Origin: an uncultured Methanocellaceae archaeon
GTDB lineage: Archaea; Halobacteriota; Methanocellia; Methanocellales; Methanocellaceae
Assembly (NCBI GenBank): GCA_963780665.1
Contig: CAWACJ010000005.1
Span: 118,335 to 182,334 of the forward strand
Direction of reading: 5' to 3'
Length of the DNA: 64,000 nucleotides
Shown here: one piece after another, positions 21,440-45,673 of the stretch
How positions within the stretch are numbered: position 1 is the stretch's first letter
How the letters are laid out: every line of letters begins with the position of its first letter
Notes under the pieces: model-generated
The model's database searches: none
What the model was told of the DNA's origin: nothing
Seen by the model: only the letters and a program-made list of their open reading frames with translations
Made by a program: the position numbers and the translations under genes

Positions 21440-21546
21440 AGTTACCCCTGTAAGATGCCTAAATAGTAGGGCTCATAGATAATAAAACGCGCGTTTCAAA
21501 CACCGAATAAATGGAAAAAAGGACTTGCCTGTATTTGCTCACGCGA

Positions 21547-28249: not shown

Positions 28250-29692
28250 ATGGCATCGGATAAGATAAAAGAAATAAAAAATCTCGTAAAGAGTAAAAAA
28301 ATTAAATATGTCGATTATAAGTTCATCGATGTGCCGGGCATCTGGCAGCATAAAACTCACCCGATCTCAGAGCTTGAAGACGATACATTTGTAAACGGAT
28401 CGGGCTTTGACGGATCGAGCATCAGAGGCTTCCAGGGAATTGAAGAGAGCGACATGCTCCTAGTACCCGACCCGGAAACTGTATTTATTGACCCATTTAT
28501 TACAGAGCCAACGATTTCGCTCATATGCGATGTAAAGGATCCCCGTGGCATGAAGAACTATGCTAAGGATCCCAGGAACATCGCTAAGACCGCTGAGAAA
28601 TACTTAGCATCGACCGGAATAGCGGATACGGCATACTTCGGCCCGGAACTCGAGTTCTTCATCTTTGATGACGTCCAGTATGACGTGCTGACGCCTTACA
28701 AGGGCACCGGCTATTCTATTAACTCAAACGAAGGTATCTGGAACTCCAACTGCAGCTCACAGCCAAACCTGGGACACCGCGTAAGGTTCAAGGAAGGCTA
28801 CTTCCCCGTACCGCCCACCGACTCGCAGGTCAACATCAGGAACGAGATGGTCGGCACCATGAACGATGTGGGCATATATGTCGAGCTACACCACCATGAA
28901 GTCGCGACCGCCGGTCAGGCTGAGATCGACATGCGCTTCGACTCGTTAGTGAACATGGCGGACAAAGTCATGAAGTACAAGTACGTGGTCAAGAACATAG
29001 CCGCAAAGAACGGCAAGACCGCGACCTTCATGCCTAAGCCTTTATTCGGCGACAACGGAAGCGGCATGCACGTCCACCAGAGCTTGTGGAAGAGTGGCAA
29101 GCCCCTGTTCTTTGACAAGAACGGCTATGGCCTGCTCTCAAAGACCGCCCTGTACTACATCGGCGGCCTGCTGAGCCATGCTGATGCATTAATGGCATTC
29201 TGCGCGCCAAGCACCAACTCCTACAAGAGACTGGTACCGGGCTACGAAGCACCTGTTAACCTGGTGTTCTCGCAGAGGAACAGGAGCGCCGCAGTGCGCA
29301 TACCCATGTACAATGATAACCCGAAAGCCAAGCGTATCGAGTTCAGGCCACCCGACGGCACCGCGAACCCGTACCTGGCATTCGCAGCCATGCTCATGGC
29401 AGGTATCGACGGTATCAAGAACAAGATCGACCCGGTCGCAGAAGGCTTCGGCCCGATGGACAAGAACATCTACCACCTGTCTGACGCAGACAAGGCGAAG
29501 ATCAAGTCCGTACCGGGCTCGCTTGGCGAGTCGCTCGCCGCGCTGGAGAAGGACCACAAGTTCCTCACCAAGGGCGACGTGTTCTCCGACAGCTTCATCC
29601 ACGAGTGGATCGACTACAAGCAGACGATGGAGATCGACCCGGTCAGGATCAGGACCCATCCGTACGAGCTGTACCTGTACTACGACGCATAA
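28250..29692 (+). CDS. glnA: Glutamine synthetase type I
   Basis: Length is 480 aa, with the GS beta-grasp and catalytic domain motifs ...[12 protein letters not shown]... and ...[10 protein letters not shown]... Confidence 0.9.
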
Positions 29693-31046: not shown

Positions 31047-32963
31047 TTAGACCTTCTCGTTATCCTGTGCCGTACCCTCGGCCGGGACCTTCTCGCTTAC
31101 GACCGTTTTCTCGCTGATCAGCGTCTTCCCGTTACCGTTATTATCGCTCTTGCTGATCCATTTTGCGAGGATCGCGTTGAACAGGCTTGCGCCTTGATCG
31201 CCGCTTCCGGTCACCAGCACGTTGGGCGTGATGACGATCTTGCCGTTGGCGACCTCCTCTATTAATTTGAGCGCAGCAACTCGTTCCGCCCCCAGGACGT
31301 CGGTCTGGGCATGATACGCGGAAGCGATGGCTTTTCCGACCTGTTCCTGCTCATAGGCGCTACCGTCGGCTTTTGTCTTCGTGGAGTCCCTGATACCCTC
31401 GGCTTCTCTTCTCAAGGCTTGTGCGTTATCCGTGGCAATATCGATCGATAGCTTGGCAGCGATGACGTCTGTCTGCTTGTCTGCTCGCGCGGTCTTCTCC
31501 GCGACCGCGATCCGCTGCTCCTGTGCCTTTGCCTCTTCCTCGTACTGCTTCTGCTGCTGGACGGCGATCTCTTTTCTCGTCTGCGTCTCCAGTAATTTTT
31601 CATCTACTTTGATGTAGGCGATGAGAAGGCCCTGGACTTCGACATGATATTTACAGAACTCCCCCCGGGCTTTTTCAAGCGACTGCATCTGAAGTTCAGT
31701 ACGGCTGTGGACAAACTCCATGGCCGCTTTATTTCCCGCCTCGTTCCTGAATGAGCTGTCGATCAGCGGATGGGCGACCTGCTCGATAAGATTCGAGACG
31801 GTGCCGAATCGCGCAATGACGAATGGCGCATTCGCGGGAGGGATACGGATGATCAGCCGGACATCCACGTCCAGCTGGAAGCCGTCCTTCGAAGTGACCT
31901 TGAGCTGGTTGAACTTAAAGAATTCCGCGACCTTTTCAGTCTCCTCCTCCTGTTGCTTCGCGTTGAGCACCTTCGTTTCGGTGACACCGTCGCGCGACGC
32001 CCAGTCTATCGTAATGGCGCTCGTCGGGACGAACTCGGGCTTGTAGGCGATCTGGTTCAGGTTATACTTACCCGGCGCGACCGGATCCTTCAGGATACCA
32101 CGTTCACTCTTGCTCGTTATCAGAAGAGTCTCGACCGCTTCCGGGAGAGTCTGGTCCAGCCCGCCATCCGTGCTAATTAAAGGAGCAATGGCCGGCTTTG
32201 TTAGCTCTTTTCCCACGCTCGAAATGACCACGGCCACATAGCCGGGAGGCACGGTCGCTACATCTGACAGGTTCACCTCGAACAGTAGCGGGTTGATGTA
32301 ATATTCACCCGGCTGCAGCGTCTCCAGTTGAGGGCCGCGATGCCCACTATTATTGATGAATGCCTGGCCATCCTGGAAATGCTTATGGTCGCCCGTCGGA
32401 TCGGGTGCGACGATGTACCCGGAGGGCAGCGGAATACCGTCACGGGCTAGTACGACGCCGACCATCTCCTTTGGTACTTCAGTGGCCCTCATGTCCTTTA
32501 TCTTAAATACCTGAGTGTTAATACGATAAGTTCCAGGCCTGAGCACGGATATCTGCGGCCCTTTACAGCCACCGCTTTCGAGGAAAGCTTTTGCGTCCTG
32601 GAACGCGCTACATTCCACTTCGTCCCCGAGCAGCCTTCCGGTAGAGATCGGCCTGCCGTCTATCGATTCGACGATTCCTATGTTCCCCGGGTTGATACAT
32701 GTGACGGGATACCGCCTGATCTTCCAGATGATCGGTATCCTCCAGTACAGTCCCGGGAGCAAAGTATCTGCCTGCAGCCCGACTTCCCCGTTGGTCGCTA
32801 TGATCTGTCCTTTTTGTAATTTTTTTCCGAGCATATTCTTAGTGACTATACCGACCTCATTATCGCGTATCAGGGCAAATCCCCGCAGGATAAATATTGC
32901 AAGTAATAGGATGATCCCGATCACTAATATGGTAAATAAAATATCTTCGAACATCTCAGTCAC
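31047..32963 (-). CDS. Flotillin-like SPFH/band-7 protein
   Basis: Length is 638 aa. An N-terminal TM helix is followed by an SPFH domain and a long coiled-coil/EA-rich C-terminal region. Confidence 0.75.
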   Translation of the reverse strand: MTEMFEDILFTILVIGIILLLAIFILRGFALIRDNEVGIVTKNMLGKKLQKGQIIATNGEVGLQADTLLPGLYWRIPIIWKIRRYPVTCINPGNIGIVESIDGRPISTGRLLGDEVECSAFQDAKAFLESGGCKGPQISVLRPGTYRINTQVFKIKDMRATEVPKEMVGVVLARDGIPLPSGYIVAPDPTGDHKHFQDGQAFINNSGHRGPQLETLQPGEYYINPLLFEVNLSDVATVPPGYVAVVISSVGKELTKPAIAPLISTDGGLDQTLPEAVETLLITSKSERGILKDPVAPGKYNLNQIAYKPEFVPTSAITIDWASRDGVTETKVLNAKQQEEETEKVAEFFKFNQLKVTSKDGFQLDVDVRLIIRIPPANAPFVIARFGTVSNLIEQVAHPLIDSSFRNEAGNKAAMEFVHSRTELQMQSLEKARGEFCKYHVEVQGLLIAYIKVDEKLLETQTRKEIAVQQQKQYEEEAKAQEQRIAVAEKTARADKQTDVIAAKLSIDIATDNAQALRREAEGIRDSTKTKADGSAYEQEQVGKAIASAYHAQTDVLGAERVAALKLIEEVANGKIVITPNVLVTGSGDQGASLFNAILAKWISKSDNNGNGKTLISEKTVVSEKVPAEGTAQDNEKV

Positions 32964-33603
32964 CCGGGCTTTATCACCCGGCCCTCACCATATAATGCTT
33001 TATTCCTCAACCATATTATACTTTATTTTTTCTAATTAGAAAATTCACTGTATATCTCGCGCGTCCTCAAGACGCACTATAAAAGCCAATATCCGCTATT
33101 AGCCCAATGGAGCCTATAAAAGCATCAGAAAATGCATTTCATGACCTCGGATCTTACCCGGGGACATTCTCATACTGCATTATGTAAGTTCATGGAATAT
33201 ATGATCGAAGAAATATCGACACATCATCGAAGATTTATCGATGTACAAAAAGAACGCCGTTAGACACAAAATAATCAATATATGCCTCGTGGCGCTCGTA
33301 TTTATTATCATATGCCCGTAAATATTGATATAATCTTGTAGACGCAAATTTTTCATTTTTCGTATAAAATCGCATTAATTTTCTTATTTGCCCTATTTTT
33401 ATAATAATAAATTGCATAGCATTATATACCTCTATTCTAATCTTTGTCTAATCAAGCGATGTGTGCATAATAATAAACTGCGCAACGTATCGCATGCCAT
33501 CTGGGGCTAACACAGAAACCCTCTACCGGGGTCTCTGCGAAAAAGGGTGGCGCTACCGGCGATCTCAGTGTAGTTCAGACTAAAAAATGGTGGTGACCGT
33601 CCC

Positions 33604-34197
33604 ATGAGCAGATCGGAATACGTAGGGGGTCGCGAAAGCGATTTTCTTTCTCCCGCAAATAAGATAGGGAACTTCAGCTATCATGATGCCATACCAGTTC
33701 TGTATGACCTGGCTCTGCTGGCTCTAATAGTATATGCGTCGAACCTATTGTATATTATCACGCACGAAATGGGCCATGCTATTCTGTGTAGCGCTACGAG
33801 TGGAAAGGTCCTGAACGTTTTTGTGGATTACCTGACACTGAGTGGTAAGACCACTTTCCTGGGCGGGAACAGTACACTGACCGCGGCCGGCGGGCTCATC
33901 GCCGGAGGCATACTCAGCGTATTTCTTTACCGGTCCGGCATGTGGTCCGCACAGCTCGCATCCGCTGTCATCGCGTTCCGCACGATGAGCGAGTGCGTCC
34001 TGATCATGCCCGGAGCTGACATAACGTTCCTCAAAGGCACTTACATCGCGCCCTTGATCGTAGGCATAGTCATTGTTTGTGGATATATCACCTATTCAGG
34101 CGCGCTAAAAGGCCTGGGAAGAAAAGTGGACCTGATCAACGCGGTCGCTGTTGCCCTAGTCGCCGGCGGAGTCTGTGCCGCATTCATGTTCCTGTGA
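33604..34197 (+). CDS. Membrane-embedded HExxH metalloprotease-like protein
   Basis: Length is 197 aa. ITHEMGHAILCS lies within a hydrophobic context, with several further TM segments. Confidence 0.45.
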   Translation: MSRSEYVGGRESDFLSPANKIGNFSYHDAIPVLYDLALLALIVYASNLLYIITHEMGHAILCSATSGKVLNVFVDYLTLSGKTTFLGGNSTLTAAGGLIAGGILSVFLYRSGMWSAQLASAVIAFRTMSECVLIMPGADITFLKGTYIAPLIVGIVIVCGYITYSGALKGLGRKVDLINAVAVALVAGGVCAAFMFL

Positions 34198-34213
34198 AGG
34201 AACATAAACATTT

Positions 34214-35164
34214 ATGAATCATACCATCCATGCTATTATAAGATGGGGCATGAATGAAAATAAAACAAATCCGACCGATGTAAATAGTCCAAATAAAAAT
34301 CCGAGTATAATCATAAAAAAAGACGAAGGCTCGCATATCGGCTATTATCTGGCGTTCATTTCGATCATTGTGCTGATACTTGCGTATATCATCGTCAAGG
34401 CGTTCAACCTGTTTCCTGAAAGTGCATATGGTACATGGACAGATTCATTCAGTATTCTAGGCGCATTATTCTTTTTTGCCGCCTGCGCATGGGGCTTGAA
34501 CCGCTCGGCGAACCTGAAGATCAGGGACGGCATGGTGCTGTTCTTGCTATGCGCTACATGTCTGCTTTTATATGAGCTGTCATGGGCATACTATAACATA
34601 ATAAATCATAACATGATGCCATACCCTTCGTGGGGCGACATTTTTTATGTTGCCGCCCACGTGCTGATGATCATGGCGATCATACTGGTCACACGAGGCT
34701 TGCGGACTAAGCCGAAGCTAGACTATCCGCTTATTATTCTAATGATAATCGCCTCATGGATCATTTTAACAATCATCGTGCTGACTACTGGCCTTAACCT
34801 GGGCGAGATATATAGCAATGGGCATGTGGACATGGCCATGGTACTCAATATCGGCTACCCGGTGCTTGACGTGATCGCGCTGGTCATGGTCGGCAGGCTC
34901 CTGGAAGTATCCCAGGGCAGGAGTGTCTTCGAGGCACAGATGATGCTGGCCGTGGCAATTTGCATGATCAGTTTCGCCGACATATATTTCTCTATCACTT
35001 CGACTCTCGGCCTTTATGAGATAGGCTCGCTCCCGGACCAGCTATTCATCATCGCATACGTGCTTTTCGGCCTGAGCGTATGGCGATACGTGAACCTGAC
35101 GCGCAGGGACATCGTGAAGGATGTGGCGAACCGGACGACAAGCGGAGATAAAGTAAGTAAATAA
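34214..35164 (+). CDS. Polytopic membrane protein of unknown function (paralog of 23767..24705)
   Basis: Length is 316 aa. It shares ...GYPVLDVIALVMVGRLLEVSQGRSVFEAQMMLA...IYFSI... with the other copy. Confidence 0.5.
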   Translation: MNHTIHAIIRWGMNENKTNPTDVNSPNKNPSIIIKKDEGSHIGYYLAFISIIVLILAYIIVKAFNLFPESAYGTWTDSFSILGALFFFAACAWGLNRSANLKIRDGMVLFLLCATCLLLYELSWAYYNIINHNMMPYPSWGDIFYVAAHVLMIMAIILVTRGLRTKPKLDYPLIILMIIASWIILTIIVLTTGLNLGEIYSNGHVDMAMVLNIGYPVLDVIALVMVGRLLEVSQGRSVFEAQMMLAVAICMISFADIYFSITSTLGLYEIGSLPDQLFIIAYVLFGLSVWRYVNLTRRDIVKDVANRTTSGDKVSK

Positions 35165-35303
35165 ATTCGCTTTGATTAGAGCCAAGGTGAATACGACAAA
35201 TATTTTTGTATAAACCTGCGGCCCCCTAAGGACTCCATCGGAAACTTACCATTTGCAGTTAGCACCGGGTCGCATGGCTGAGTGATGCGCAGATAATAAT
35301 AAA

Positions 35304-35324
35304 CGCCCCCTGGCGTCGGGGGCA
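35304..35324. terminator. GC-rich hairpin between convergent genes (putative bidirectional terminator)
   Basis: gcccccTGGCGTCgggggc forms a 6-7 bp G/C stem flanked by A/T-rich runs, between the +gene ending at 35164 and the -gene ending at 35344. Confidence 0.4.
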
Positions 35325-35343
35325 TAATAAAAACGGGTGTTAT

Positions 35344-35571
35344 CTAGAACTTGAGCTTTTTAAACTCTTCAATGTCGTATGCGAGCCTGCCCAGTTCCTC
35401 ATCCGTGATCTCAACGCGGTTCTTGAGCGCACGTAATTCTGCCGTCAGTTGCTTGATCCTCGCGTACATTACGTACATGATGATAAAGCAGAGGATGATG
35501 CCCACGGAAAGGAGCCCGATAAGAAGCTCAAACAAAGTACTATTAGTATCGAACATATCATACGCCTCCAA
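35344..35571 (-). CDS. Small membrane-anchored coiled-coil protein (last gene of the MinD/PATAN array)
   Basis: Length is 75 aa, with one TM helix followed by an amphipathic/coiled-coil tail. It overlaps the minD-like stop by ~14 nt. Confidence 0.4.
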   Translation of the reverse strand: MEAYDMFDTNSTLFELLIGLLSVGIILCFIIMYVMYARIKQLTAELRALKNRVEITDEELGRLAYDIEEFKKLKF

Positions 35572-36352
35572 ATAGTGACCGTGCTAGACGGTCGATGAAT
35601 CCTTCTTTATTCGACTCTGCGCCTGCGGCCTCCGTGACCATGGCCTTAGAGCCTGCCAGCTTCGCCGCCAGCTTCTTATAGCCTTTTGCTGCCGGGCTGT
35701 CCGGGTACATGACGACGACTGGCGTCTTGAACGCAGCCGCTCTGCGGACACTTGAGTCCTCGGGTATGACCTCGAGCACTTCTGCGCCCATGATCTGACT
35801 GATCTTCTGGCTGGTGAGCATAGTCTTCTCCGCAGATGCCCTGTTCAGGACAATGCCGCCCACTGCACCGCCAACCATCTCGGTCAGTACCTTGATCTTG
35901 ACCGCGTCGGCGAGTGACGAAAGTTCGGGGTTCACCACGAGCAATACCTCATCCGCGATCGCAAGGGGTATTACGCCATCCTTGCTGATGCCTGCCGGAG
36001 CGTCTATCAATATGAAGTCGGCGCCCGTGACAAGCTTGCTCATTACAAACTGCAGCCTGTCCGGGTCGGCGTTCTGAAAGCCCTGTAGCGATATGCCGCT
36101 GGGGACAACTTTCAGCCCTGTCGGCAGCTCGTACACAGCCTGAGAGATATCCGCCTTTCCGGCGAGTACTTCATGCAGTGTGATCTTACTCTTTTCCAGG
36201 CCTAGCACGAGGCCCAGGTTTGCCATGCCTATGTCGGCGTCCAGTATAATGGTACGCTTACCCAATAGCGCCAGGGCGGTACCCAGGTTCGCTGTTGTCA
36301 TCGTCTTCCCTGTGCCGCCCTTTCCAGAAGCGATCGTATATACTTTAGTCAT
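35558..36352 (-). CDS. MinD/ParA-family P-loop ATPase (archaeal MinD-like)
   Basis: Deviant Walker A SGKGGTGKTMTTANLG, followed by ...ILDADIGMANL... Length is 264 aa. Confidence 0.8.
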   Translation of the reverse strand: MTKVYTIASGKGGTGKTMTTANLGTALALLGKRTIILDADIGMANLGLVLGLEKSKITLHEVLAGKADISQAVYELPTGLKVVPSGISLQGFQNADPDRLQFVMSKLVTGADFILIDAPAGISKDGVIPLAIADEVLLVVNPELSSLADAVKIKVLTEMVGGAVGGIVLNRASAEKTMLTSQKISQIMGAEVLEVIPEDSSVRRAAAFKTPVVVMYPDSPAAKGYKKLAAKLAGSKAMVTEAAGAESNKEGFIDRLARSLFGGV

Positions 36353-36407
36353 TCAACACATCCACCTGTATTTTTGCCCCACTGAGCTTGATATTATGAT
36401 AGTCATG

Positions 36408-37316
36408 TTATGCCTTCCTGATCATCTCTATCAGGATCATTCGCCTGATCTCGGCTTCATCGTATACGATGCCGATATCCCTGATATGCTTTACGTACGA
36501 CACCACGTCTTCCTCGTTAGGCCAGGTCTTGTCCGCGAGGAATATCTGGATGTCGTGCAGTATCCAGTCCCTGATCTTATTTTTTCGCTCTTCGATCTTT
36601 GAGTAAACTTTCTCCAGTACAGTATTCTCTTGGAAATAATAGCCTTTTTCCTTCAGGTGCCTGATCACGTCCATAGGGTCTATGGATACGAGCGCGCTAT
36701 TGCCGATGATATCGTCTATTTCGGTGTCAAGGACCTCGCTGCTAAGCGACATGGACTTCGAGGCCTTGCGGATAGTATCCATCGGCTGAGGTGTTCTCGG
36801 CTCTTCCGCAATTTGCGACGGCACTTCTGGCTTCTTGTTGATCTTCGGGGTTGACTTCCCCATCGCCATGCGAATGCGGCGGGCCTCGTTGATGAGGTTC
36901 CGCACCTCCGTAGCATCGGAATCGAAGTATTCGGCGATCTCGTCTTCGCCGTACGCCTGAGTTCCGGCGACGGCGACACTACCTCCTTCGACAGCGACGA
37001 TTTGCTCGCTCACTTCTGCCTCGGCTGGTTCCACGCTCTCGGGAATCGCCGCTTCGAGGTCAGCATACAATTTCGCTTGCTGCTCGTTAGCGATCTCCAT
37101 GTACCTGGCAAGTGTGTTGTCCATGATGGACGATGCCTGCTCTTCGTGGAACACGTCGAGCAGCATGTTCATGAGCCTCGACAGGTCAAGCGATCCGTCC
37201 TGCCCCACTATACCCGATATGGATTCGGTGTCCACGGCTTTATTGAACCTGGCAAGCCCTTCGATGCCCGCCGTGTACAGGATAGAGTTCTGGAGTATGA
37301 CATGGATGTCGCTCAT
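36408..37316 (-). CDS. Hypothetical acidic protein in the MinD/PATAN array
   Basis: Length is 302 aa. No recognisable motif. It sits between minD-like and the PATAN-like gene on the same strand with short gaps. Confidence 0.45.
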   Translation of the reverse strand: MSDIHVILQNSILYTAGIEGLARFNKAVDTESISGIVGQDGSLDLSRLMNMLLDVFHEEQASSIMDNTLARYMEIANEQQAKLYADLEAAIPESVEPAEAEVSEQIVAVEGGSVAVAGTQAYGEDEIAEYFDSDATEVRNLINEARRIRMAMGKSTPKINKKPEVPSQIAEEPRTPQPMDTIRKASKSMSLSSEVLDTEIDDIIGNSALVSIDPMDVIRHLKEKGYYFQENTVLEKVYSKIEERKNKIRDWILHDIQIFLADKTWPNEEDVVSYVKHIRDIGIVYDEAEIRRMILIEMIRKA

Positions 37317-37325
37317 ATGTGGACC

Positions 37326-38540
37326 TCAGTTTTTCTTTTTGTTCTCAGACGTCACCTTAAGGTGTGACAGCTCTAGTCGTTTTAGCAATTCATCCACGTT
37401 GCCCACGAACTCGCTCTCGACCTTTTTTACGAAATCTATGTCCGCGTCCATGTCGCCTTTCATGGTGCTCGAAGACTTCACTTCGGGCACGGGCGTCCCG
37501 AGCCCCTCCACGCTATATGCCTGCCGGTCTGTTCTCTCCAGCAGTGCCCTTGCAGGTATGCCAATTTCATTTCTGGGGCCGTTCTCAGGCATAGGCTGAG
37601 GCGACTCAATGCGACGCGATGGCGTTATCCATGGCTTCATTTCCGGGACAGGCACAGGCTCGGGCTCGGACTTAAACACCGGCGCCGGAATTGAGTACCT
37701 GGGCTGATCCAGGCGAGGCCCGGGCTCCGGCCTGTGCACAGGCTCCGGAGCGGGTGATGTCGATACCCGGGGATTTCCGTGCAGGACTGACAGTATTAGT
37801 GACTCTTCGACACGATAGAATTCCGCATCCCCGGCGTATACCATGAGCGAGTCCAGCAGCGCTTTGCCGATCAATTCCGACTTTTCGGAATAGGCGGCTT
37901 CCGGTTTTCCCCTGATGAGCAGGATGTGGTATTCAGCGAATGCGCTGCCCGTCTTTACGGCAAAGATCACATGCCCCGTCTCATCAGTCCTGGCGCTCAT
38001 GTATGCGCTAAGGCTTTCCACAGTTTCCGACTTCAGGAACTGTCCCCTCACTTCCGGCAGCCTACCCTGCCTGACGGGCGCTTCAGCCCTGGGGCGCCGC
38101 TGCTGCGCGGGCTCCGGCTGGGCTTCGCGCTTCCTTAAGGTCGGCATCATATCGACCCTTTGCGGCTGCACAGGCTGTTGCGCAGCCTGTTGCGCAGGTT
38201 GCTGCGCCTTCAAGGTAAACTCCTTGCAGAAGTCCAGCATGAGGCGTATCTGGCTATCGTTGAATGCGCATAGTTCCAGAATTGCCGCATCCTTAGAAAC
38301 TATTGAAGTGATGAGCTGTAAGTCGCTATCCGGGCGATCGGTGTTGCCGTCTGACGTGAACGCGATCGCCGGCGTGCCCGACTTGTAGACTAAGACGCCT
38401 TCGACGCTCTCGCCGGGCTTGCTTATGAGGGAAGCCCTCAGGTAGCCGGTGAATGTGTTCTTCGCGAGCGATGCATTGATCTCGGCCAGGGACCTTGGCA
38501 GGCCATCACTCTTTACCGGAGTGCCATACGGTAGCTTCAT
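37326..38540 (-). CDS. Protein with two PATAN(DUF4388)-like domains separated by Q/P-rich low-complexity linkers
   Basis: The likely start MKLPYG (38540) overlaps the upstream gene stop as ATGA. The domain pattern SLAEINASLAKNTFTGYLRASL...EGVLVYKSGTPAIAFTSDG recurs as TVESLSAYMSARTDETGHVIFAVKTG...AEYHILLIRGKPEAAYS. The linkers are QQPAQQAAQQPVQPQ and PEPVPVPE. Confidence 0.55.
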   Translation of the reverse strand: MKLPYGTPVKSDGLPRSLAEINASLAKNTFTGYLRASLISKPGESVEGVLVYKSGTPAIAFTSDGNTDRPDSDLQLITSIVSKDAAILELCAFNDSQIRLMLDFCKEFTLKAQQPAQQAAQQPVQPQRVDMMPTLRKREAQPEPAQQRRPRAEAPVRQGRLPEVRGQFLKSETVESLSAYMSARTDETGHVIFAVKTGSAFAEYHILLIRGKPEAAYSEKSELIGKALLDSLMVYAGDAEFYRVEESLILSVLHGNPRVSTSPAPEPVHRPEPGPRLDQPRYSIPAPVFKSEPEPVPVPEMKPWITPSRRIESPQPMPENGPRNEIGIPARALLERTDRQAYSVEGLGTPVPEVKSSSTMKGDMDADIDFVKKVESEFVGNVDELLKRLELSHLKVTSENKKKN

Positions 38541-39286
38541 ACCATGTCCCTCACTGTATTCTGCACATTCTTGATGCTTAATCGCACGAGACCCAGGTTC
38601 CCATCCGCCTTGGCCAGCACGCACAGGAACATATCATCGATCGGAGCTATGATCACCTTATATTCGGGCGTCTCCAGGATGATCTGCTCGGCGCTGCCCA
38701 GCTGGAGCTCCGTCGCGATCCTCGTGCCCGAGCGCACGATGTCCTCGGTTGCGACTGCAATGTGCTCAAAGTCCACCTGCTGCTCGCCTTTCTGGAATAT
38801 AGGGAAGCCATCTGCGACGAGAGCTGCCGCGACCACGCCAGGGAGAAGCAGGACCGTGGAAAGCATCGACTCGTACGGTACTGCCTGTCTTTCAATGGGG
38901 CCATCCGATGCTTCGACGGCTTCTTCTTCCAGTATGCCTTCGGGCTTTTCGTTGTTCATTGCCTGTCCGACAATGACCGAGTCGGGATAGGATTCCAGCA
39001 GCTCGGACTTTTCTTTTTCACTGTATGAATAGACCTTGAGTCGCGTCTCGTTAAGCGAAAGCATGCGCTCCAGCGCGTTCATCTGATACAGCGTGATCGT
39101 GCTCAGCATGTTGTACGCCGATGCAAGAACATTCCCGTCTTCTATCAGGATGAAGCCTTCGCTGACCCTGCCGTCTTCCACCCGGAAAACGTGTATGCAC
39201 CCGCGGAAATTTTTACTGTATTCTCGCAGTACGTCCGGTATGGGCTTTTTCGTTTCGGCTATGAAGTTACCGTATGGGAGTTTCAC
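38537..39286 (-). CDS. PATAN(DUF4388)-like N-domain fused to a Roadblock/LC7 C-domain
   Basis: The N-terminus MKLPYGNFIAETKKPIPDVLREYSKNFRGCIHVFRVEDG...GFILIEDGNVLASAY is paralogous to the downstream gene's N-terminus. The C-terminus ...LLLPGVVAAALVADGFPIF... has a Roadblock-like pattern. Confidence 0.55.
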   Translation of the reverse strand: MKLPYGNFIAETKKPIPDVLREYSKNFRGCIHVFRVEDGRVSEGFILIEDGNVLASAYNMLSTITLYQMNALERMLSLNETRLKVYSYSEKEKSELLESYPDSVIVGQAMNNEKPEGILEEEAVEASDGPIERQAVPYESMLSTVLLLPGVVAAALVADGFPIFQKGEQQVDFEHIAVATEDIVRSGTRIATELQLGSAEQIILETPEYKVIIAPIDDMFLCVLAKADGNLGLVRLSIKNVQNTVRDMV

Positions 39287-39334
39287 TGATAGACGTCCTT
39301 GTTCGGATGTTCAATGCGCAATATCTGGTGCGAT

Positions 39335-39682
39335 TCAAAGTGCTGCAGTTATGCGATCCTTGTTCTTTTTCACTTCATACCGTATCCTGCCTATGTTCGC
39401 GCCGGATTCGGCGACGATGGCAAGGATCTCATTTTCCGTTACCAGGGAAAGGATGATCGGGCCTTTCTCCAGCTCGACGATTACCTGCTCGAAGTTACCC
39501 TTGCCCAGCTCTATGCCCATTGCTTCCGACGTACCGACGCTGGTAGAAGCCATAGCTCCCAGGGCGTCCACGTCCATCTGGATGTTGGCCACGTGCTCGA
39601 TGATGAACCCGTCCCGGCCAACGATCGCTGCGGCGTTAACGCCCTCGACCTTTGTCAGGTCGCTTAAAATCCTGTTTAGCAT
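39335..39682 (-). CDS. Roadblock/LC7 (MglB-like) domain protein
   Basis: Length is 115 aa. The pattern ...GVNAAAIVGRDGFIIEHVA...NIGRIRYE is present. The start overlaps the hydrogenase large-subunit stop. Confidence 0.7.
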   Translation of the reverse strand: MLNRILSDLTKVEGVNAAAIVGRDGFIIEHVANIQMDVDALGAMASTSVGTSEAMGIELGKGNFEQVIVELEKGPIILSLVTENEILAIVAESGANIGRIRYEVKKNKDRITAAL

Positions 39683-41085
39683 CTTTCAACCTCACGAACG
39701 ATTTTTCCCTCAGAATCCATTACCCTTAGAACGAAGGGCATCTTACCAATCGCGTGCGTTGCGCACGACACGCATGGATCATAGGCCCTGACGACCATCT
39801 CGATGCGGTTGAGCAATCCCTCGTTCACATTATCCCCATGGATGAGCTTTTGTGATGCTTGTAGCACGCCCTTATCTATTGCACGGTTATTATGGCCCGT
39901 AGCCACGATAAGGTTTGCCTTGGTGATAAAGCCCTTGTCATTCACCGTATAGTCGTGAATGAGCGTGCCCCTGGTCGCCTCGACTACGCCTACGCCTCGC
40001 GTGTTCTTTACGCCGGTGACCTCCGTGCGGATATTCTTGCCAGTGATAGCCGGGTCCTGCAGAAGTGTGAGAGCAATCTCGCTGGCCGCGGTATACTCGA
40101 TGACGCGCGCCAGGTGATACATCATGGATCCCTGCGGCGCCCTGCCGAACCTGGAGCGGAACTCGGCAAGCATCTTGTCCGCTTCCGGAGTGCCCATGGA
40201 ATCGACCACGTTAACTCGCGCTAGCGGCCCTACACGATAGAATCCGCTGCCTTGCTTGAGCTTCGTGAACTTCATGTAGGAATATGACTCTGCCATTTCC
40301 TCGATGTAATTCAAATAGTCGGCACCCTGAAAATCACATATCTGTGCAGCGTTTCCATCCAGCACCCTGAGGTTGCCGTCATAGGTCTCCCACTTGCCGC
40401 CGCTGGTCATACCCATGAAATCAGACTGCATTAGACCCAGCCCATTGAAGATATCCGGATATTTATCGAACTGCTGCATGACGATTGGCCATGAGGCTTT
40501 TGATATCTCGACTGAGCGTTTTGCCATTACTTCCAGTTCAGCGCGCTTCTCGTTAGAGAGAGCAAATGCCATGCCGCCCGGAATGGCAGATATGGGGTGT
40601 ATGGGCTTTCCGCCTATCTCCTCGGTGATGCGCTGGCCGATCTTCCTGGCCTCGACTGCCTGCGTTGCCAGCGTTGCGTTAGCCTTGACCAGCCCGGCGA
40701 CATTCCTGAGCGCCGGATCCGAGTCCGGGCCGAGCAGGAAGTCCGGCATGGCCAGGTAGAATAAATGCAGCGAATGCGAGCCGATGAACTGCCCCATGTC
40801 CAGTAATTTTCTGAGCTTGATGCCCGTCTCCGGCACCTGGACTCCGAAAATGGCATCCACAGCCTTGGCCGACGCTAAATGATGTACGGTCGGGCAAATC
40901 CCACAAATCCTCGGGGTGATACGCGGCGCTTCTTCCACTGCCGCACCTTCGAGGAACTTTTCGAAGCCTCTCAGCTCCGTAGCGTGGAAGTGCGCATCCG
41001 CGACTTCGCCCTTATCATCCAGGTCCACGGTCACTGAGGCGTGGCCCTCGATCCTCGACAATGGTGAAATGGTGATCTTTTTCAT
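39676..41085 (-). CDS. [NiFe] hydrogenase large subunit, group 3 (MvhA/Vhu-like), intact
   Basis: Length is 469 aa. Motifs are RIEGH, RICGICPTVHH, and C-terminal DPCVSCATHA, followed by a cleavable extension. Confidence 0.8.
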   Translation of the reverse strand: MKKITISPLSRIEGHASVTVDLDDKGEVADAHFHATELRGFEKFLEGAAVEEAPRITPRICGICPTVHHLASAKAVDAIFGVQVPETGIKLRKLLDMGQFIGSHSLHLFYLAMPDFLLGPDSDPALRNVAGLVKANATLATQAVEARKIGQRITEEIGGKPIHPISAIPGGMAFALSNEKRAELEVMAKRSVEISKASWPIVMQQFDKYPDIFNGLGLMQSDFMGMTSGGKWETYDGNLRVLDGNAAQICDFQGADYLNYIEEMAESYSYMKFTKLKQGSGFYRVGPLARVNVVDSMGTPEADKMLAEFRSRFGRAPQGSMMYHLARVIEYTAASEIALTLLQDPAITGKNIRTEVTGVKNTRGVGVVEATRGTLIHDYTVNDKGFITKANLIVATGHNNRAIDKGVLQASQKLIHGDNVNEGLLNRIEMVVRAYDPCVSCATHAIGKMPFVLRVMDSEGKIVREVERC

Positions 41086-42002
41086 AGGTGTCTCTCCTTG
41101 ATGATGTCGGGTATCTTAGACACCGACTTGTTCTCCATGATCTTGCTGCCCATGACGAACGGGTATATCGTGTGCGGCACGTCATAAAGCTCTTTTTCGA
41201 TTTCCGCCTGCGGCAGATCGGTCAGGTGCTGGATGCGCATGACCAGTATATTATATAGATCTCTACAGGGCTCGCGCAACACGTCTAGCGAGGGGCCGCC
41301 ACAGCCATGGCACGCTACTCCGTGGTGCGTGCAGGTTGCATGGCATCTTCCGAAAGTCACTGACCCAAGGCATATGTAGCCCTGGCCCAGCAGGCACTTA
41401 CCCTCTTCCGGCGTGCCTTCGTACCTGCGCTTGATCTTCCAGTCCTTTACCAGTTCCATGTTGCGGTCGCATTCCGAGCAGACCGACTTTTTGGCCAGTT
41501 CCGGCACGTTTCCTTCTAGGAGAGGCAGCAGTATCTGCCTCAGGAACGCTTCCTTCGGCGGGCATCCGGTAATATAATAGTCCACCTTGACCACGTCGCC
41601 CACTGCGTAGCCCCTGTATAATAACTCGGGTATGTCGTCCTTGGGTATCGTTTTAGACGTCAGCCCCGCGCTTTCGGTGTACACGCCGTTCAGGATCTCG
41701 TCCCTGCTGTGTATGATCGACAAGCCGGACACACCGCCATAACAGGCGCAGGTGCCGAACGCGATGAGTATTTTAGCGCGCTGCCGAAGCTTTTTCACGC
41801 GCTCCATATTCTCCTTGTTCCTGATGGCGCCCGCCACTATGGCAATATCGATGTTCTCGGGCGGTTCCTTTACGTCCATGAGTATGGGGGAATAGACGAT
41901 CTCGGCTTTGCTTAATAGCTGTAGGATATCCTCGTGAATGTCCAGGAGCCCCATATGGCAGCCTGCGCACGATGCTAATGGTTCAGTTGCGAGCTTGATC
42001 AT
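41082..42002 (-). CDS. [NiFe] hydrogenase small subunit (MvhG-like), intact
   Basis: Length is 306 aa. Motifs are SCAGCHM, FGTCACYGGV, and ITGCPP, plus distal-cluster cysteines. Confidence 0.8.
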   Translation of the reverse strand: MIKLATEPLASCAGCHMGLLDIHEDILQLLSKAEIVYSPILMDVKEPPENIDIAIVAGAIRNKENMERVKKLRQRAKILIAFGTCACYGGVSGLSIIHSRDEILNGVYTESAGLTSKTIPKDDIPELLYRGYAVGDVVKVDYYITGCPPKEAFLRQILLPLLEGNVPELAKKSVCSECDRNMELVKDWKIKRRYEGTPEEGKCLLGQGYICLGSVTFGRCHATCTHHGVACHGCGGPSLDVLREPCRDLYNILVMRIQHLTDLPQAEIEKELYDVPHTIYPFVMGSKIMENKSVSKIPDIIKERHL

Positions 42003-42006
42003 GTCC

Positions 42007-42561
42007 TCACCTCAAAATGAGCTTTTTTAAGCATGTGTTGGGGCCGACGTGTACGATCTCCAGCTTTCCGCGCTTGCCCGTGATCTCCTCGACCGCGCCG
42101 ACCATGTAGCCGTACAGGCTCTGGCACAGCGGGCCTTTCTGGGACATTCCCTCGTGCCTCAAAGTTTGCCGGACGAGGCAATCCCTGAACACGAGATATA
42201 TGAACGTCTCGCCATTTTCCGTGATGATATAAGAGTCCTTGTCCTTGGGCTTCCACAGCTCGAAGTTATACTGCCTGCCGAGTATCTCGGATAACTCCTT
42301 CAGTGCCTTCTCGACGTTATCGGTCTTGGGGAAGAACTTAGCCGTCTCGTGGCCCATCTTATTCCCGGCCCTGTAGACGACCGCATTGGCGCCGCTCCGG
42401 GCGATCTCCTCGAGCGAGCGTATGATCGTGGCGTTCAAGACCATCAGGCCGTGGAGCGCCTCCTCGTAATCGTAGATGTTGCCTTCGCAGTGCATCGGCA
42501 TCTCTTCGGGCTTAACGGAGTGTTCCATCGACATTATACGAACCTCCGCAGCATAGAGCAT
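42007..42561 (-). CDS. V4R-like (vinyl-4-reductase-type) domain protein encoded upstream of the hydrogenase subunits
   Basis: Length is 184 aa. ...CLVRQTLRHEGMSQKGPLCQSLYGYMVGAVEE resembles the V4R Cys-containing region. No MvhD-like [2Fe-2S] motif was found. Confidence 0.4.
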   Translation of the reverse strand: MLYAAEVRIMSMEHSVKPEEMPMHCEGNIYDYEEALHGLMVLNATIIRSLEEIARSGANAVVYRAGNKMGHETAKFFPKTDNVEKALKELSEILGRQYNFELWKPKDKDSYIITENGETFIYLVFRDCLVRQTLRHEGMSQKGPLCQSLYGYMVGAVEEITGKRGKLEIVHVGPNTCLKKLILR

Positions 42562-42779
42562 ACGTCCAGGTCGACGTAAAGGCGTCTCGATAAGTAGATG
42601 TCCTGGTGCTCTATCGCGTTTGCCGGGCAGATCTCATGACATGACAGGCACATCATGCAATCGTCCGGGTTCACTACACTGGAGCGCCCGTCTTTCAGCT
42701 CGTATACCTTCATCGGGCAATCGTGCACACACAAGCCGCATCCAATGCACACATCTTTGTCCAAGATAATGTTTACCAT
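42534..42779 (-). CDS. 2x[4Fe-4S] ferredoxin
   Basis: Length is 81 aa, with CIGCGLCVHDCP and CMMCLSCHEICP. Confidence 0.7.
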   Translation of the reverse strand: MVNIILDKDVCIGCGLCVHDCPMKVYELKDGRSSVVNPDDCMMCLSCHEICPANAIEHQDIYLSRRLYVDLDVCSMLRRFV

Positions 42780-43519
42780 CTTTTTTCCCCATCCTCAACG
42801 GTTGGTAATTCTGTAATAGCCAGATATATAAGAAATAAATGATAGATTACTTAGATATATATCTATTCCTGATGCGTGGAAATTATTTCGCTGAAAATGA
42901 TAAGTTAAATAAATAATTGACGATTTTCAATTAATTTATAGCTTAATAAGCGATGAAATGATAATTTTGTTCAAAATATTTATTAAAGATCATTCATTCA
43001 TGCCATTTCAGGTCCCGTCGCTCTGGAGTAGCCCATATGCCATTTCCGGGATAATATTAATGTGCTATTTACGTTCACGACTCATCAATAGTTCGCGCCC
43101 GAAATCCGTTGTTTCATTTTTAGTGGCTGCTTTGTTGTCTGTACGTATGGAGAGACAACAAACCAACAACAAAACAAAGAGCTTACGATATAACCATGGA
43201 ACAAGTGATCTCCGTGGAGAAAAGCGGTGCATTTCGAGAATCTCGTGGCGAATTTGGCCTGATCCTTGCCGAAACGTTGCTAGTTATTTTCAGCTTCTCA
43301 TTTTTTTACTGAAGTGAAAATTAAATATTTTAATGTTAATTTTAGCAAGTAGTATACGACAAAGTTAATAAACCAGCCCAAATTATCTATGTTTCGCGGT
43401 CATGTATATCAAACAGCGGTGACCGGTATTCGTTTAAAAACGCGTGAAAACACCTAAAAACAGGGCACATACACGCTTTGACTTCATGAGAACGGTGAAA
43501 GCCGTAAACGGGTGAGTGA

Positions 43520-44200
43520 ATGGAAAACGATGTAGCGAAGATGCAGGCCATAAACGAATATCTTAGCGATTCGAGGGAACGTTTCGTAAACATAAATCAG
43601 GATTATTTCGATAACCGTATCCCGGACATTATGCTGCGTATCAGCGACCGGCTCTACAGCCGTATCGGGTATGCGCATAGTAATCCGCTCGGTATTGTTC
43701 TATCTTACCGGTATTTGGAGAAATATGGCTGGGAAACCCTGGATGAGGTACTGAGGCACGAGATCGCACACATATATGCTTTTCACTTTTATGGAGAGCG
43801 AGGCCACCGCGGGAGCCATTTTTTAGACGCCTGCCGCAGGATGGAAGTGTCGCCCTCCGCGCGTACGAACGAATTATTCGTCGAGCGTCAAAAGTGGTTT
43901 TATCGCTGCAGGAAATGCGGTGAAGCGGTCGCTACCTACAGGCCTTTGAGGAAGGTGGAGTATTGTGATTGCTGCGAGCCCTGCGATGATAATATGCTCA
44001 TCAAGGTAAACCCGGACCAGATGAACATGCCGCTCAACGAGTTCAGGGCACACGTAATGCCTAAGATCTCCATCTATGTATGCACGCAGTGCGGCCGCGA
44101 AGTACGCCGCTATAAGCGCTGGGGGGAGAAGCATTCATGTGCGATCTGCCACCCGGATGTGTTCGATGAAAAATGCCTGATGACGCTGGTCAAAGGCTAA
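43520..44200 (+). CDS. SprT-like zinc metalloprotease with C-terminal zinc ribbons
   Basis: HEIAHIYAF (HExxH) lies in an SprT-like context, with CRKCGEAV...CDCCEPC and CTQCG...CAICH ribbons. Confidence 0.6.
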   Translation: MENDVAKMQAINEYLSDSRERFVNINQDYFDNRIPDIMLRISDRLYSRIGYAHSNPLGIVLSYRYLEKYGWETLDEVLRHEIAHIYAFHFYGERGHRGSHFLDACRRMEVSPSARTNELFVERQKWFYRCRKCGEAVATYRPLRKVEYCDCCEPCDDNMLIKVNPDQMNMPLNEFRAHVMPKISIYVCTQCGREVRRYKRWGEKHSCAICHPDVFDEKCLMTLVKG

Positions 44201-44320
44201 AATTTTTTTTTGCCAGCCAGGCGGGGGCCTTTATTCCATCGTACCATCGCAAATTGAAAACAGCCTCCGGCGGCTGAACTATTACGAACATTTTGTTTAG
44301 GGCGATTTCGTCTTGCGCTT

Positions 44321-44623
44321 ATGCAGGCATATACCCATATCGATGCTCTACTTTACATTTATCATATGGACTTTTTAGGGTTCGTGGAAAAGTATGGCGA
44401 AGCGACGACGAGATCAGCTCTCATGCTGGTGGTCGGCCGCATCAGGGGCATAATAAAAGAAAAGGTCGCCAGAGCTGCGGCCACGGACGGCATAGTGACA
44501 CTTTCTATAGATGAGCTGAGATGCGATGTCGCAAGCGTAGCTCACGTGCTTAATGAGTTTCCCTTTTCACCTGAAGAAAAAAACATACTACTCCATAAGG
44601 CATGGGAGATCGTGTCTCCATAA
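44321..44623 (+). CDS. Hypothetical protein
   Basis: A 100-aa ORF in an otherwise empty region. No motif was recognised. Confidence 0.3.
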   Translation: MQAYTHIDALLYIYHMDFLGFVEKYGEATTRSALMLVVGRIRGIIKEKVARAAATDGIVTLSIDELRCDVASVAHVLNEFPFSPEEKNILLHKAWEIVSP

Positions 44624-44665
44624 AGAAACTATTTTTAATCGCCGCGCATTATCAGTCAGCGTCAT

Positions 44666-45673
44666 ATGAAGAAGATCATCAAGGATTTCGAGTGCGCCAT
44701 GTGCGGCCAGTGCTGTGCCAGCCAGGATCTCGTGCAGTTGACGACCTTCGAGCTGTATAAGCTCGCGGACCATTTGCACCTGAAGCCTGCTGATTTCTTT
44801 AATCAGTATTGTGAGCTTGGAGCTACGAATTTAACCCCGACCCCGCACCTGTATATTAAAACAAATAACGGCGCCTGCCCGTTCCTAAAGGAGAACAAAT
44901 GCAGCGTTCATGGGGCTCGACCGTATGCCTGCAGGGCATATCCGCAGCGTGCCTACTGGGTGCCGGTTGCGGACATGAAAGGCTTCGTGCGCACAAAATA
45001 CCCGACGCTCGAGGCTTCGTGCAGCCTTTTTACGCTTAAGGACCGGGACGTGCTGATCGGCGATTTTGATCTTCTGGCGAAGCAGACCATATCGTACTGG
45101 GTGGATGACGCGTACTTCAGCATGGCTGGTGACCAGGTGGATCTCTCGGTGCCTTATAAAGTAGCCGTTCATTACATCCATGATAAAGATATGCGAGAGA
45201 CTGCAAAGCGCTATGTGGTAAACGCTCAGCATGGCCCGTCGGCTTTTAGCGCGGAACGCGCATATGCGCAGATATCTCTTACTTTAATGGCATACGCCTG
45301 GGGTGCCGTAACCTCATTCGTGCCTGTGCATTCGCAAGTCATCAAAGAGGACGAGCGTATCGGTAAATTCCTGCTCTTCAAGACGGACGCGAACTCGGCA
45401 ACAGCGATGAAAATGCTCGTAGAGGGCGGCAAGATGGACGTGGCAAGGACGCTGGTGGCAGACTCGAAGACATATCCGGACCGTCATATCGTCAGTGCCA
45501 TCCATGGCTCGAGTGCCGATGGCATCACGCTGGGATTTCAATTTGACCTGGATAGCGCTACGATGGCGGTGCTCACGAGGAACGGGACGCAGCCGGTCTA
45601 CGCCTTCTTCGTGCCGGAGAGCGGCGAAGATACGAAAATGGTCGGGTTTAAGTTGAGCATAAAGCCCTTTTAA
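44666..45673 (+). CDS. YkgJ/UPF0153-type CxxCxxCC putative Fe/Zn-binding protein with a large C-terminal extension
   Basis: N-terminus: ...FECAMCGQCCAS...GACPFLKENKCSVHGARPYACRAYP... Confidence 0.5.
   Translation: MKKIIKDFECAMCGQCCASQDLVQLTTFELYKLADHLHLKPADFFNQYCELGATNLTPTPHLYIKTNNGACPFLKENKCSVHGARPYACRAYPQRAYWVPVADMKGFVRTKYPTLEASCSLFTLKDRDVLIGDFDLLAKQTISYWVDDAYFSMAGDQVDLSVPYKVAVHYIHDKDMRETAKRYVVNAQHGPSAFSAERAYAQISLTLMAYAWGAVTSFVPVHSQVIKEDERIGKFLLFKTDANSATAMKMLVEGGKMDVARTLVADSKTYPDRHIVSAIHGSSADGITLGFQFDLDSATMAVLTRNGTQPVYAFFVPESGEDTKMVGFKLSIKPF

Follow-up and report, generated by a model that had tools for sequence, protein, structure and literature searches.

The window analysed here is a 64,000-nt stretch of DNA from an uncultured Methanocellaceae archaeon (contig CAWACJ010000005.1, positions 118,335 to 182,334), which carries on its minus strand, at 35344-42779, ten tightly packed open reading frames (ORFs) named g1 to g10 in the order of transcription. 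They code for a [NiFe]-hydrogenase with a ferredoxin and an accessory protein, followed by Roadblock, PATAN-like and MinD-type proteins (Table 1), and the homologues bear out a placement in Methanocellaceae. An earlier note, made from the sequence alone, had described ten co-oriented genes with tiny gaps or overlaps as a candidate coupled module, and all the ORFs were found where it had placed them and in the same order. There is a 1-nt overlap (TAATG) between g1 and g2, a gap of 4 nt between g2 and g3, an ATGA overlap between the small and large subunit genes g3 and g4, a 7-nt overlap (ATGCTAA) between the large subunit gene and the Roadblock gene g5, a gap of 48 nt before g6, which starts with GTG, an ATGA overlap between g6 and g7, a gap of 9 nt between g7 and g8, and one of 55 nt between g8 and the MinD gene g9. 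Two of the overlaps singled out in the earlier note, that of the large-subunit stop with the Roadblock start and that of the paralogs g6 and g7, were read in the sequence, while the third, between the minD-like stop and the last gene, exists only if g10 starts with the TTG at 35571; with the ATG at 35556 (70 aa) there is a 1-nt gap.

Table 1 Features of the hydrogenase–Roadblock–MinD operon and its borders in the window
Feature	Position	Strand	Length	Remarks
g1, ferredoxin, 2x[4Fe-4S]	42534..42779	-	81 aa	First gene of the operon; Fer4/Fer4_10 E ~1e-12
g2, V4R/TRAPPC3/H-NOX-fold protein	42007..42534	-	175 aa	
g3, [NiFe]-hydrogenase small subunit, MvhG-like	41082..42002	-	306 aa	Oxidored_q6 3e-29
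g4, [NiFe]-hydrogenase large subunit, MvhA-like	39676..41085	-	469 aa	NiFeSe_Hases (PF00374) 3e-34
g5, stand-alone Roadblock/LC7 protein	39335..39682	-	115 aa	Robl_LC7 1.1e-14
g6, DUF2226 (PATAN-like) and Roadblock fusion	38537..39286	-	249 aa	
g7, double DUF2226/PATAN-like protein	37326..38540	-	404 aa	No Pfam match
g8, acidic orphan	36408..37316	-	302 aa	pI 4.65
g9, archaeal MinD-type ATPase	35558..36352	-	264 aa	TIGR01969 minD_arch
g10, single-transmembrane and coiled-coil protein	35344..35556	-	70 aa	Last gene of the operon
Likely terminator (putative role)	35300..35333	-		T5 run 35329-35333, then GCCCCC...GGGGGC hairpin, T-rich tail
Candidate archaeal promoter	42780..42870	-		AT-rich; TATA-like boxes TTCTTATATATC 42822-42833 and ATAGATATATATC 42853-42865

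The large subunit possesses both Ni-binding motifs, RICGICPTVH (C61/C64) of the RxCGxCxxxH type and DPCVSCATH (C438/C441) of the DPCxxCxxH type, the latter followed by a C-terminal extension of 25 residues past the histidine. Its best matches among Protein Data Bank (PDB) sequences are the large subunit of a bifurcating NiFe-hydrogenase (7t2r_D, 414 bits) and MvhA (5odc_F, 407 bits, and also 9sw2), and it reaches 436 bits with the VhuA model, under the equivalog cut-off of 800. The small subunit, with 238 bits against the VhuG model, is likewise under the equivalog cut-off (450); its residues 1-283 can be aligned to MvhG from the structure of the Mvh–Hdr complex (5odc_E, 259 bits), and the Cys ligands of the FeS clusters are conserved. 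It contains 14 Cys, and its N-terminus, MIKLATEPLASCAGCH, is devoid of the RR motif, so that no twin-arginine translocation (Tat) signal can be read there. No MvhD or Hdr genes were found among the ten genes or in the orthologous clusters, and profile scans of the ten genes revealed no PAS histidine kinase of the HoxJ/HupT type. Because of the motifs, the alignment with MvhG and MvhA and the missing Tat signal, the hydrogenase is best classified as a cytoplasmic Mvh-type enzyme (group 3, 3c-like), a divergent relative of Mvh, and not as the energy-converting (group 4) hydrogenase that the earlier note had called it.

Canonical mvhDGAB genes are present in Methanobacteriales. The genome of M. 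paludicola contains two Mvh sets, one of which adjoins mvhD/hdr, whereas the other, MCP_2492-2493, is paired with a distant mvhD (PMC3146512); the latter was taken, by gene content alone, as the orthologue of the hydrogenase in the window. Since just one of the two sets lies beside mvhD/hdr, the window hydrogenase appears to be a paralogue and not the housekeeping Mvh; until now it has been counted as an Mvh isoenzyme.

The ferredoxin g1 is kept at the same position in 47 related loci and also occurs in Methanobacteriaceae with 52-57% identity. The best conserved protein of the cluster is g2, which possesses an invariant Cys119/Cys137/His162/Cys168 site, a putative metal site. It gave no match in family profile scans, nor did the g2-family profile match any PDB sequence; a fold search matched it to the V4R sensor domains of PoxR/DmpR and to H-NOX, placing it in the V4R (PF02830)/TRAPPC3/H-NOX superfamily, and the label V4R-like given to it before is hence confirmed at the fold level. 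The H-NOX fold is a ligand sensor. The V4R/TRAPPC3 fold has also been described as one (PMC10933270).

The Roadblock assignments of the earlier note were borne out by the Robl_LC7 profile (PF03259), with scores above the gathering threshold and the Roadblock fold both found: g5 scores 54 bits, and the C-terminal part of g6 matches with E 4e-6. The g5 protein is cysteine-free and shares 79-100% identity within Methanocellales and 56-63% with Methanomicrobiales. The g6 protein, which is 100% identical to the database protein P0001, consists of a DUF2226 domain (PF09987) at residues 1-100, scoring 25.1 bits against a gathering score of 22, a disordered linker at 107-135 and the C-terminal Roadblock domain. 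In g7, two DUF2226/PATAN-like domains, at about 1-110 and 160-265, are combined with Q/P-rich linkers and a short conserved C-terminal helix. Both are in register with the g6 N-terminal domain in alignment A4 (hhalign of g7 against A4, 98.8%), as the description of g7 as a double-PATAN-like protein had implied, and membership of g7 in DUF2226 was obtained through profile-profile comparison only. With the 207-aa protein of Methanoculleus, g7 gave 96.8% in hhalign and has a C-terminal motif in common, and by these comparisons the g6 N-terminal domain, the two halves of g7 and the 207-aa protein belong to one domain family.

The name PATAN needs some care. Neither g6 nor g7 nor any other protein of the window reached the threshold of DUF4388/PATAN (PF14332, gathering score 25 bits), and homologues scored 15.5 and 17 bits (E 0.018 and 0.006), below the gathering score. 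Out of 1.84 billion representatives, the A4 profile retrieved only 64 proteins, and among the 59 of these that were scanned there were 34 with DUF2226 and 13 with DUF4388/PATAN. The term PATAN-like used in the earlier note therefore probably holds as remote homology, the formal Pfam family being DUF2226. No MglA-type small GTPase turned up in the ten genes or in the clusters of relatives, and the sole GTPase nearby is FeoB, in two loci. In Methanobacteriaceae (L065 1-2937, also L066), a 385-aa DUF2226 protein adjoins SepF, the archaeal FtsZ anchor, which hints that DUF2226 proteins may act in division or positioning.

The unknown acidic protein of the earlier note, g8, remains without a family, having no match in Pfam, NCBIfam or PADLOC. 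Its orthologues are confined to Methanocellales loci and share 26-43% identity with it, apart from 89% in the nearly identical locus L009, a contig of a metagenome-assembled genome (MAG) in which most of the cluster proteins are 98-100% identical to those in the window and g7 and g8 85-89%. BLASTP and hhalign revealed no relation of g8 to the Methanoculleus 171-aa transmembrane (TM) protein, the C-terminal domain of the Methanobacteriaceae Roadblock fusion, g7 or Roadblock, and hhalign none to the other cluster proteins. A Roadblock-like end of the 171-aa protein itself was also considered and rejected, with an hhalign probability of 0.3%.

The MinD-type ATPase named in the earlier note was readily recognised: g9 scores 315 bits with TIGR01969 minD_arch (cut-off 201.75), besides CbiA/ParA/AAA_31 matches and a weak one to CpaE homologues (2.5e-10). 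It contains the deviant Walker A motif SGKGGTGKT, no Cys and a C-terminal amphipathic motif, EGFIDRLARSLFGG, which we take to resemble the membrane-targeting helix of bacterial MinD. The Walker A motif and the C-terminal one (EGF[IV]DRLAR[SA]LF) are present in 42 of the 42 cluster-linked MinD orthologues. By its curated score, the deviant Walker A motif and the amphipathic helix it is an archaeal MinD, for which membrane binding is predicted. The small protein g10 consists of a hydrophobic stretch, LFELLIGLLSVGIILCFIIMYVM, and a heptad-like helix and gave only weak Pfam matches; its orthologues of 56-72 aa follow MinD in all Methanocellales loci.

A scan with the g6 family, with one genome taken per species, resulted in 57 loci, all from Methanocellales or Methanomicrobiales, of which 45 with at least 3.8 kb of upstream flank were informative. 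The full set of ferredoxin, g2, small subunit, large subunit and Roadblock genes precedes g6 in the same order in 41 of these 45, one more being a frameshifted draft, and g6 identity across the loci is 28-62%. The small and large subunit genes overlap by 4 nt in 49 of 50 loci, the gap from the large subunit to the Roadblock gene is 25 nt or less in 56 of 57, and that from the Roadblock gene to g6 is mostly 4-5 nt. The g2 family is also found in Methanobacteriaceae, where ferredoxin, g2, small and large subunit genes are followed by a gene for a 414-439-aa protein beginning with a Roadblock domain. The rest of this protein (L065 12123-13367, L067 12146-13462) is made up of a long acidic low-complexity linker and a helical C-terminal domain of about 130 aa that has no family match. 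L065 and L066 possess, in addition, a separate Roadblock gene (115 aa) that stands by itself some 6 kb upstream of the cluster.

The constant set over the three orders is composed of the hydrogenase, the ferredoxin, the V4R protein and Roadblock. Around it the other genes vary: the DUF2226–Roadblock fusion g6 follows the core in Methanocellales and Methanomicrobiales; MinD with PATAN-like and TM proteins lies downstream in Methanocellales and Methanofollis; in Methanoculleus MinD is found upstream, in the order 207-aa protein, 171-aa protein, MinD; and within 10 kb it is absent from at least eight well-flanked loci and from Methanobacteriaceae, with Roadblock still there. Since the hydrogenase–Roadblock adjacency is kept in Methanocellales, Methanomicrobiales and Methanobacteriaceae despite the rearrangement of the flanks, it does not look accidental. 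The neighbours are shuffled and yet stay within one functional theme of MinD, PATAN-like, TM and pilus genes. The refuting conditions that the earlier note had set on domain matches and on neighbourhoods did not hold, since the Roadblock and DUF2226 matches are significant and relatives keep the adjacency, and its proposal of a real, conserved and apparently undescribed coupled module is supported. MinD, which it had named along with the hydrogenase as a partner of the Roadblock and PATAN-like proteins, is linked to them in many loci but is not a constant part. Two unrelated loci (L004 1-7073, L019 6071-8592) carry genes for FeoB, FeoA, an iron-dependent repressor and ferritin shortly before the module, possibly by chance.

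In 12 Methanomicrobiales loci the same-strand run goes on past g6 into PilB3-like and PilC-like genes, in Methanogenium-type loci after a gap of just 35-45 nt. The run consists of genes for a 203-208-aa protein, a PilB3-like T2SSE ATPase and a T2SSF (PilC-like) protein, with a second T2SSF gene in 8 of the 12 loci; the remaining contigs end earlier or show none. The N-terminus of the 203-aa protein ahead of pilB is suggestive of DUF2226 (hhalign 38%). In Methanofollis both MinD and pilB/pilC lie past g6. The Methanoregula locus likewise encodes MinD together with pilB/pilC; the window, where no T2SSE match was obtained, does not. No pilin or cytochrome genes were found in the clusters examined.

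Three loci lack the hydrogenase. Two of them, L049 from Methanoregula and L025 from a Methanogenium MAG, have kept Roadblock, PATAN-like or MinD genes, and pilB; the third, L019, possesses 207-like, 171-like, Roadblock and g6 genes, with no MinD or pilB match within its flanks. L025 still contains, at 9362-9532, 57 residues of the large subunit (400-456) immediately ahead of intact Roadblock, g6 and pilB genes, which indicates that the hydrogenase was lost in situ. Because the Roadblock and PATAN-like genes persist without it, they seem to form, with MinD and/or pilus genes, a self-standing module to which the hydrogenase is attached in most lineages, as an input would be. In L049 a gene for a REC–PAS response regulator (6016-6765) stands beside the MinD, TM and PATAN-like genes and might provide this module with a different input.

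Only one run of five or more T occurs on the sense strand between 35200 and 43000, and it lies just past the g10 stop beside a GC hairpin. About two such runs would be expected there by chance, by a rough estimate on an assumed T content, which makes it weak evidence; with the AT-rich sequence upstream of g1 it fits a single transcription unit. Searches with PADLOC gave no defence-system match, and with Rfam on 33000-45000 no RNA families. The surroundings in the window include, as housekeeping context, two CofH/CofG-like radical SAM genes (20393-22626), a PurP-like gene (25828-26928), a glutamine synthetase gene (28250-29692) and a gene for a 638-aa Band 7/SPFH protein (31047-32963) on one side, and a SprT-like gene (43520-44200) and a CxxCxxCC-domain gene (44666-45673) upstream of the operon. 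The ORFs scanned yielded no hyp, archaellum, pilus or che gene. In two Methanocella genomes the same upstream place (L001 850-6270, L003 617-6035) is occupied by a divergent group-4-like hydrogenase/Complex I module with a 49-kDa/30-kDa fusion, NADHdh, Oxidored_q6, Fer4 and a CCG (HdrB-like) protein. Past the last gene of the operon, two Methanocellales genomes possess an NYN and OST-HTH gene (L001 14152-14916, L004 15849-16631) that is not found in the window.

The reading that we favour, with chances that we put a little short of even, is that the paralogous Mvh-type hydrogenase serves as an H2 or redox input to a Roadblock–PATAN-like–MinD switch controlling a type IV filament or other membrane-sited machinery. 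The single operon would then be an H2-responsive regulatory module in which the Mvh-type paralogue, provided with its own small ferredoxin and with a V4R/H-NOX-fold subunit in place of MvhD, would report H2 availability or the redox state set by H2. The signal would go on to a Roadblock platform composed of g5 and the g6 Roadblock domain; the overlap of the genes makes it probable that these are produced in step with the enzyme. This platform and the DUF2226/PATAN-like domains of the g6 N-terminus and g7 would in turn control the membrane-binding MinD (g9, with the TM protein g10), and in relatives the same platform may directly control the PilB3/PilC motor of a type IV filament. As a result, a surface filament, or some other machine sited at the membrane, would be assembled or placed according to the H2 supply. 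The gene content, the folds, the operon-like packing and the linkage in three orders are observed; from them we infer a physical complex, the signalling direction and the output, the last in Methanocellales because pil genes are absent from the window.

Several points speak for an input of this kind. Regulation of NTPases and scaffolding are known tasks of Roadblock proteins (MglB, Ragulator, conservons), pilus machines are placed by MinD/ParA relatives such as TadZ/CpaE, and to our knowledge no sensor has been identified for archaellation controlled by H2. PATAN domains serve as outputs, binding PilB1 and PilC, and their genes often lie beside those of MglA/MglB (bioRxiv 10.1101/2021.06.11.447907), and archaellum synthesis in a methanogen was reported to be controlled by H2 partial pressure (PMC10117864). 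The sensor fold of the accessory subunit g2 also counts for an H2 input, as do the linkage that outlasts rearrangements, the common theme of the shuffled neighbours, the persistence of the Roadblock/PATAN-like genes where the hydrogenase is missing, and the status of the hydrogenase as a paralogue. Of the functions suggested in the earlier note, that of a hydrogenase-sensing polarity system is the one favoured by the evidence, as a presumed function.

A number of observations weigh against this reading. All the catalytic and FeS ligands of the hydrogenase are in place, as is its C-terminal maturation extension, which group 2b sensory hydrogenases lack, and the enzyme shows no sensor-specific degeneration. 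The cluster is devoid of an MglA-type NTPase, we know of no demonstration of a Roadblock–MinD interaction, and no pilB/pilC (T2SSE) genes were found within 10 kb in the window or in the Methanocellales and Methanobacteriaceae loci. The persistence of the module without hydrogenase, moreover, is seen in three MAG or draft loci. More doubtful still is the full proposal that three methanogen orders carry a dedicated H2 sensor made from a duplicated Mvh, whose state would be read by the V4R-fold subunit together with a Roadblock heterodimer and passed on, with neither a two-component kinase nor a small GTPase, to PATAN-like adaptors, MinD and the PilB/PilC motor. If true, adhesion or movement by means of pili, for instance towards syntrophic partners that produce H2, would track the H2 supply, and the first regulator would be at hand of an archaeal MinD, a protein that has no MinE.

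The intact, Mvh-like state of the enzyme would suit a different arrangement, in which a working Mvh isoenzyme reducing ferredoxin with H2 or feeding Hdr is the cargo, tethered by Roadblock/PATAN-like adaptors to the membrane or to a cell site through MinD, in the way ParA/MinD-family ATPases position carboxysomes or chemoreceptor arrays. A MinD with a conserved membrane-targeting helix and a TM protein encoded next to it would agree with this, as would gene overlaps suggestive of stoichiometric complexes and the counting of a second Mvh in the M. paludicola genome paper (PMC3146512). We nevertheless regard it as unlikely, as MinD is missing within 10 kb from the loci mentioned above where Roadblock stays, the adaptors outlast their supposed cargo in L019, L025 and L049, the cluster contains no MvhD or Hdr genes, and the run into pilB/pilC is left unexplained. 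The same persistence of Roadblock/PATAN-like genes without hydrogenase, and their place in pilus operons, tells against a role in maturation, in which MinD, as a SIMIBI NTPase like HypB, CooC or Mrp/NBP35, would together with Roadblock insert Ni or Fe-S or assemble the hydrogenase. That role might be suggested by the weak matches of MinD-family proteins to NifH, Mrp and ApbC models and by the textbook regulation of NTPases by Roadblock proteins (MglB, Ragulator). With g9 scoring well above the minD_arch cut-off, carrying a membrane-targeting helix and having no cysteine, which leaves it unable to bind a bridging metal or cluster in the manner of CooC, Mrp and NifH, and with the linkage holding without MinD, maturation is to be considered very unlikely.

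The uninterrupted run from the hydrogenase through Roadblock and PATAN-like genes to PilB, PilC and a second PilC in Methanogenium-type loci could also be taken to mean that the hydrogenase directly powers or gates the filament, by redox control of a conductive filament or in extracellular electron uptake. The enzyme is, however, cytoplasmic in the absence of a Tat signal, the clusters examined contain no pilin or cytochrome genes, the window has no pil genes and no precedent is known to us; we give this, if anything, even less credit than maturation. Next to negligible is the chance that two unrelated operons merely abut and are read through without functional meaning. The 48- and 55-nt gaps could hide internal promoters, but the adjacency is kept in three orders at protein identities down to about 30-55%, survives at least three different rearrangements of the flanks and is marked by overlapping start and stop codons at the critical junction. 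Recent horizontal copies of one island are argued against by identities of 30-60%.

The searchable literature yielded no account of a hydrogenase tied to Roadblock, V4R, PATAN or MinD genes, nor any paper mentioning DUF2226; the components are of known kinds, while their combination and its implication look new. H2 is the energy source of hydrogenotrophic methanogens, and we know of no account of how they perceive it; the operon is a good candidate for H2 sensing in methanogens, with concrete and testable components. If this is true, it would tie the 'eukaryote-like' platform folds Roadblock and V4R to a MinD-class ATPase and bear on the regulation of archaeal MinD proteins. The 'second Mvh' of Methanocellales and the sole 'MvhAG' of Methanoculleus would then need re-reading in metabolic reconstructions, as they may not feed heterodisulfide reductase.

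The closest known relative is the F420-non-reducing hydrogenase MvhAGD of the Mvh–Hdr complex, with which the window enzyme shares subunits aligning end to end with MvhA and MvhG, all the Ni and FeS ligands and a cytoplasmic location. It differs in having no MvhD, polyferredoxin MvhB or hdr genes in the cluster, in the small ferredoxin and V4R-fold protein genes preceding G and A, in the scores under the equivalog cut-offs and in the Roadblock genes that are always next to it, and in M. paludicola this second set co-exists with the canonical Mvh. The group 2b sensors known from textbooks (HoxBC–HoxJ of Cupriavidus, HupUV–HupT) have the concept in common, an H2-reporting [NiFe]-hydrogenase in complex with a small protein that has an alpha/beta signalling domain. 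They belong to another hydrogenase group, are bacterial and not archaeal, lack the C-terminal extension that is present here, and use a PAS histidine kinase as transducer with transcription as the output, in contrast to Roadblock, PATAN-like and MinD proteins and, likely, positioning or assembly in the present case.

The MglA/MglB and PATAN polarity modules by which the type IV pilus motor is sorted (Myxococcus; the cyanobacterial PatA-type regulators PixE/PixG) are similar with respect to PATAN-related domains and, in relatives of the window locus, PilB/PilC neighbours; here, however, there is no MglA-type GTPase or REC domain, the NTPase is MinD, DUF2226 is not bona fide DUF4388, and a hydrogenase is attached. 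TadZ/CpaE and archaeal MinD4, MinD/ParA-family ATPases responsible for the placing of Tad pili, archaella or chemosensory arrays, resemble g9 in the deviant Walker A motif and in the place beside pilB/pilC that its relatives have in Methanofollis and Methanoregula loci, although g9 matches best the archaeal MinD subfamily and not TadZ, pilus genes are not nearby in the window, and we know of no Roadblock or DUF2226 partners of TadZ or MinD4. Streptomyces conservons (CvnA–D) likewise co-encode a sensor, Roadblock and an NTPase, with a histidine-kinase-like CvnA and a small GTPase that the window cluster does not possess. Finally, V4R (TRAPPC3-like) and Roadblock folds come together in one cluster as in Ragulator/TRAPP (PMC10933270); the cluster gives no sign of a TRAPP-like GEF made of g2 and the Roadblock proteins, and the likeness is at the fold level only.

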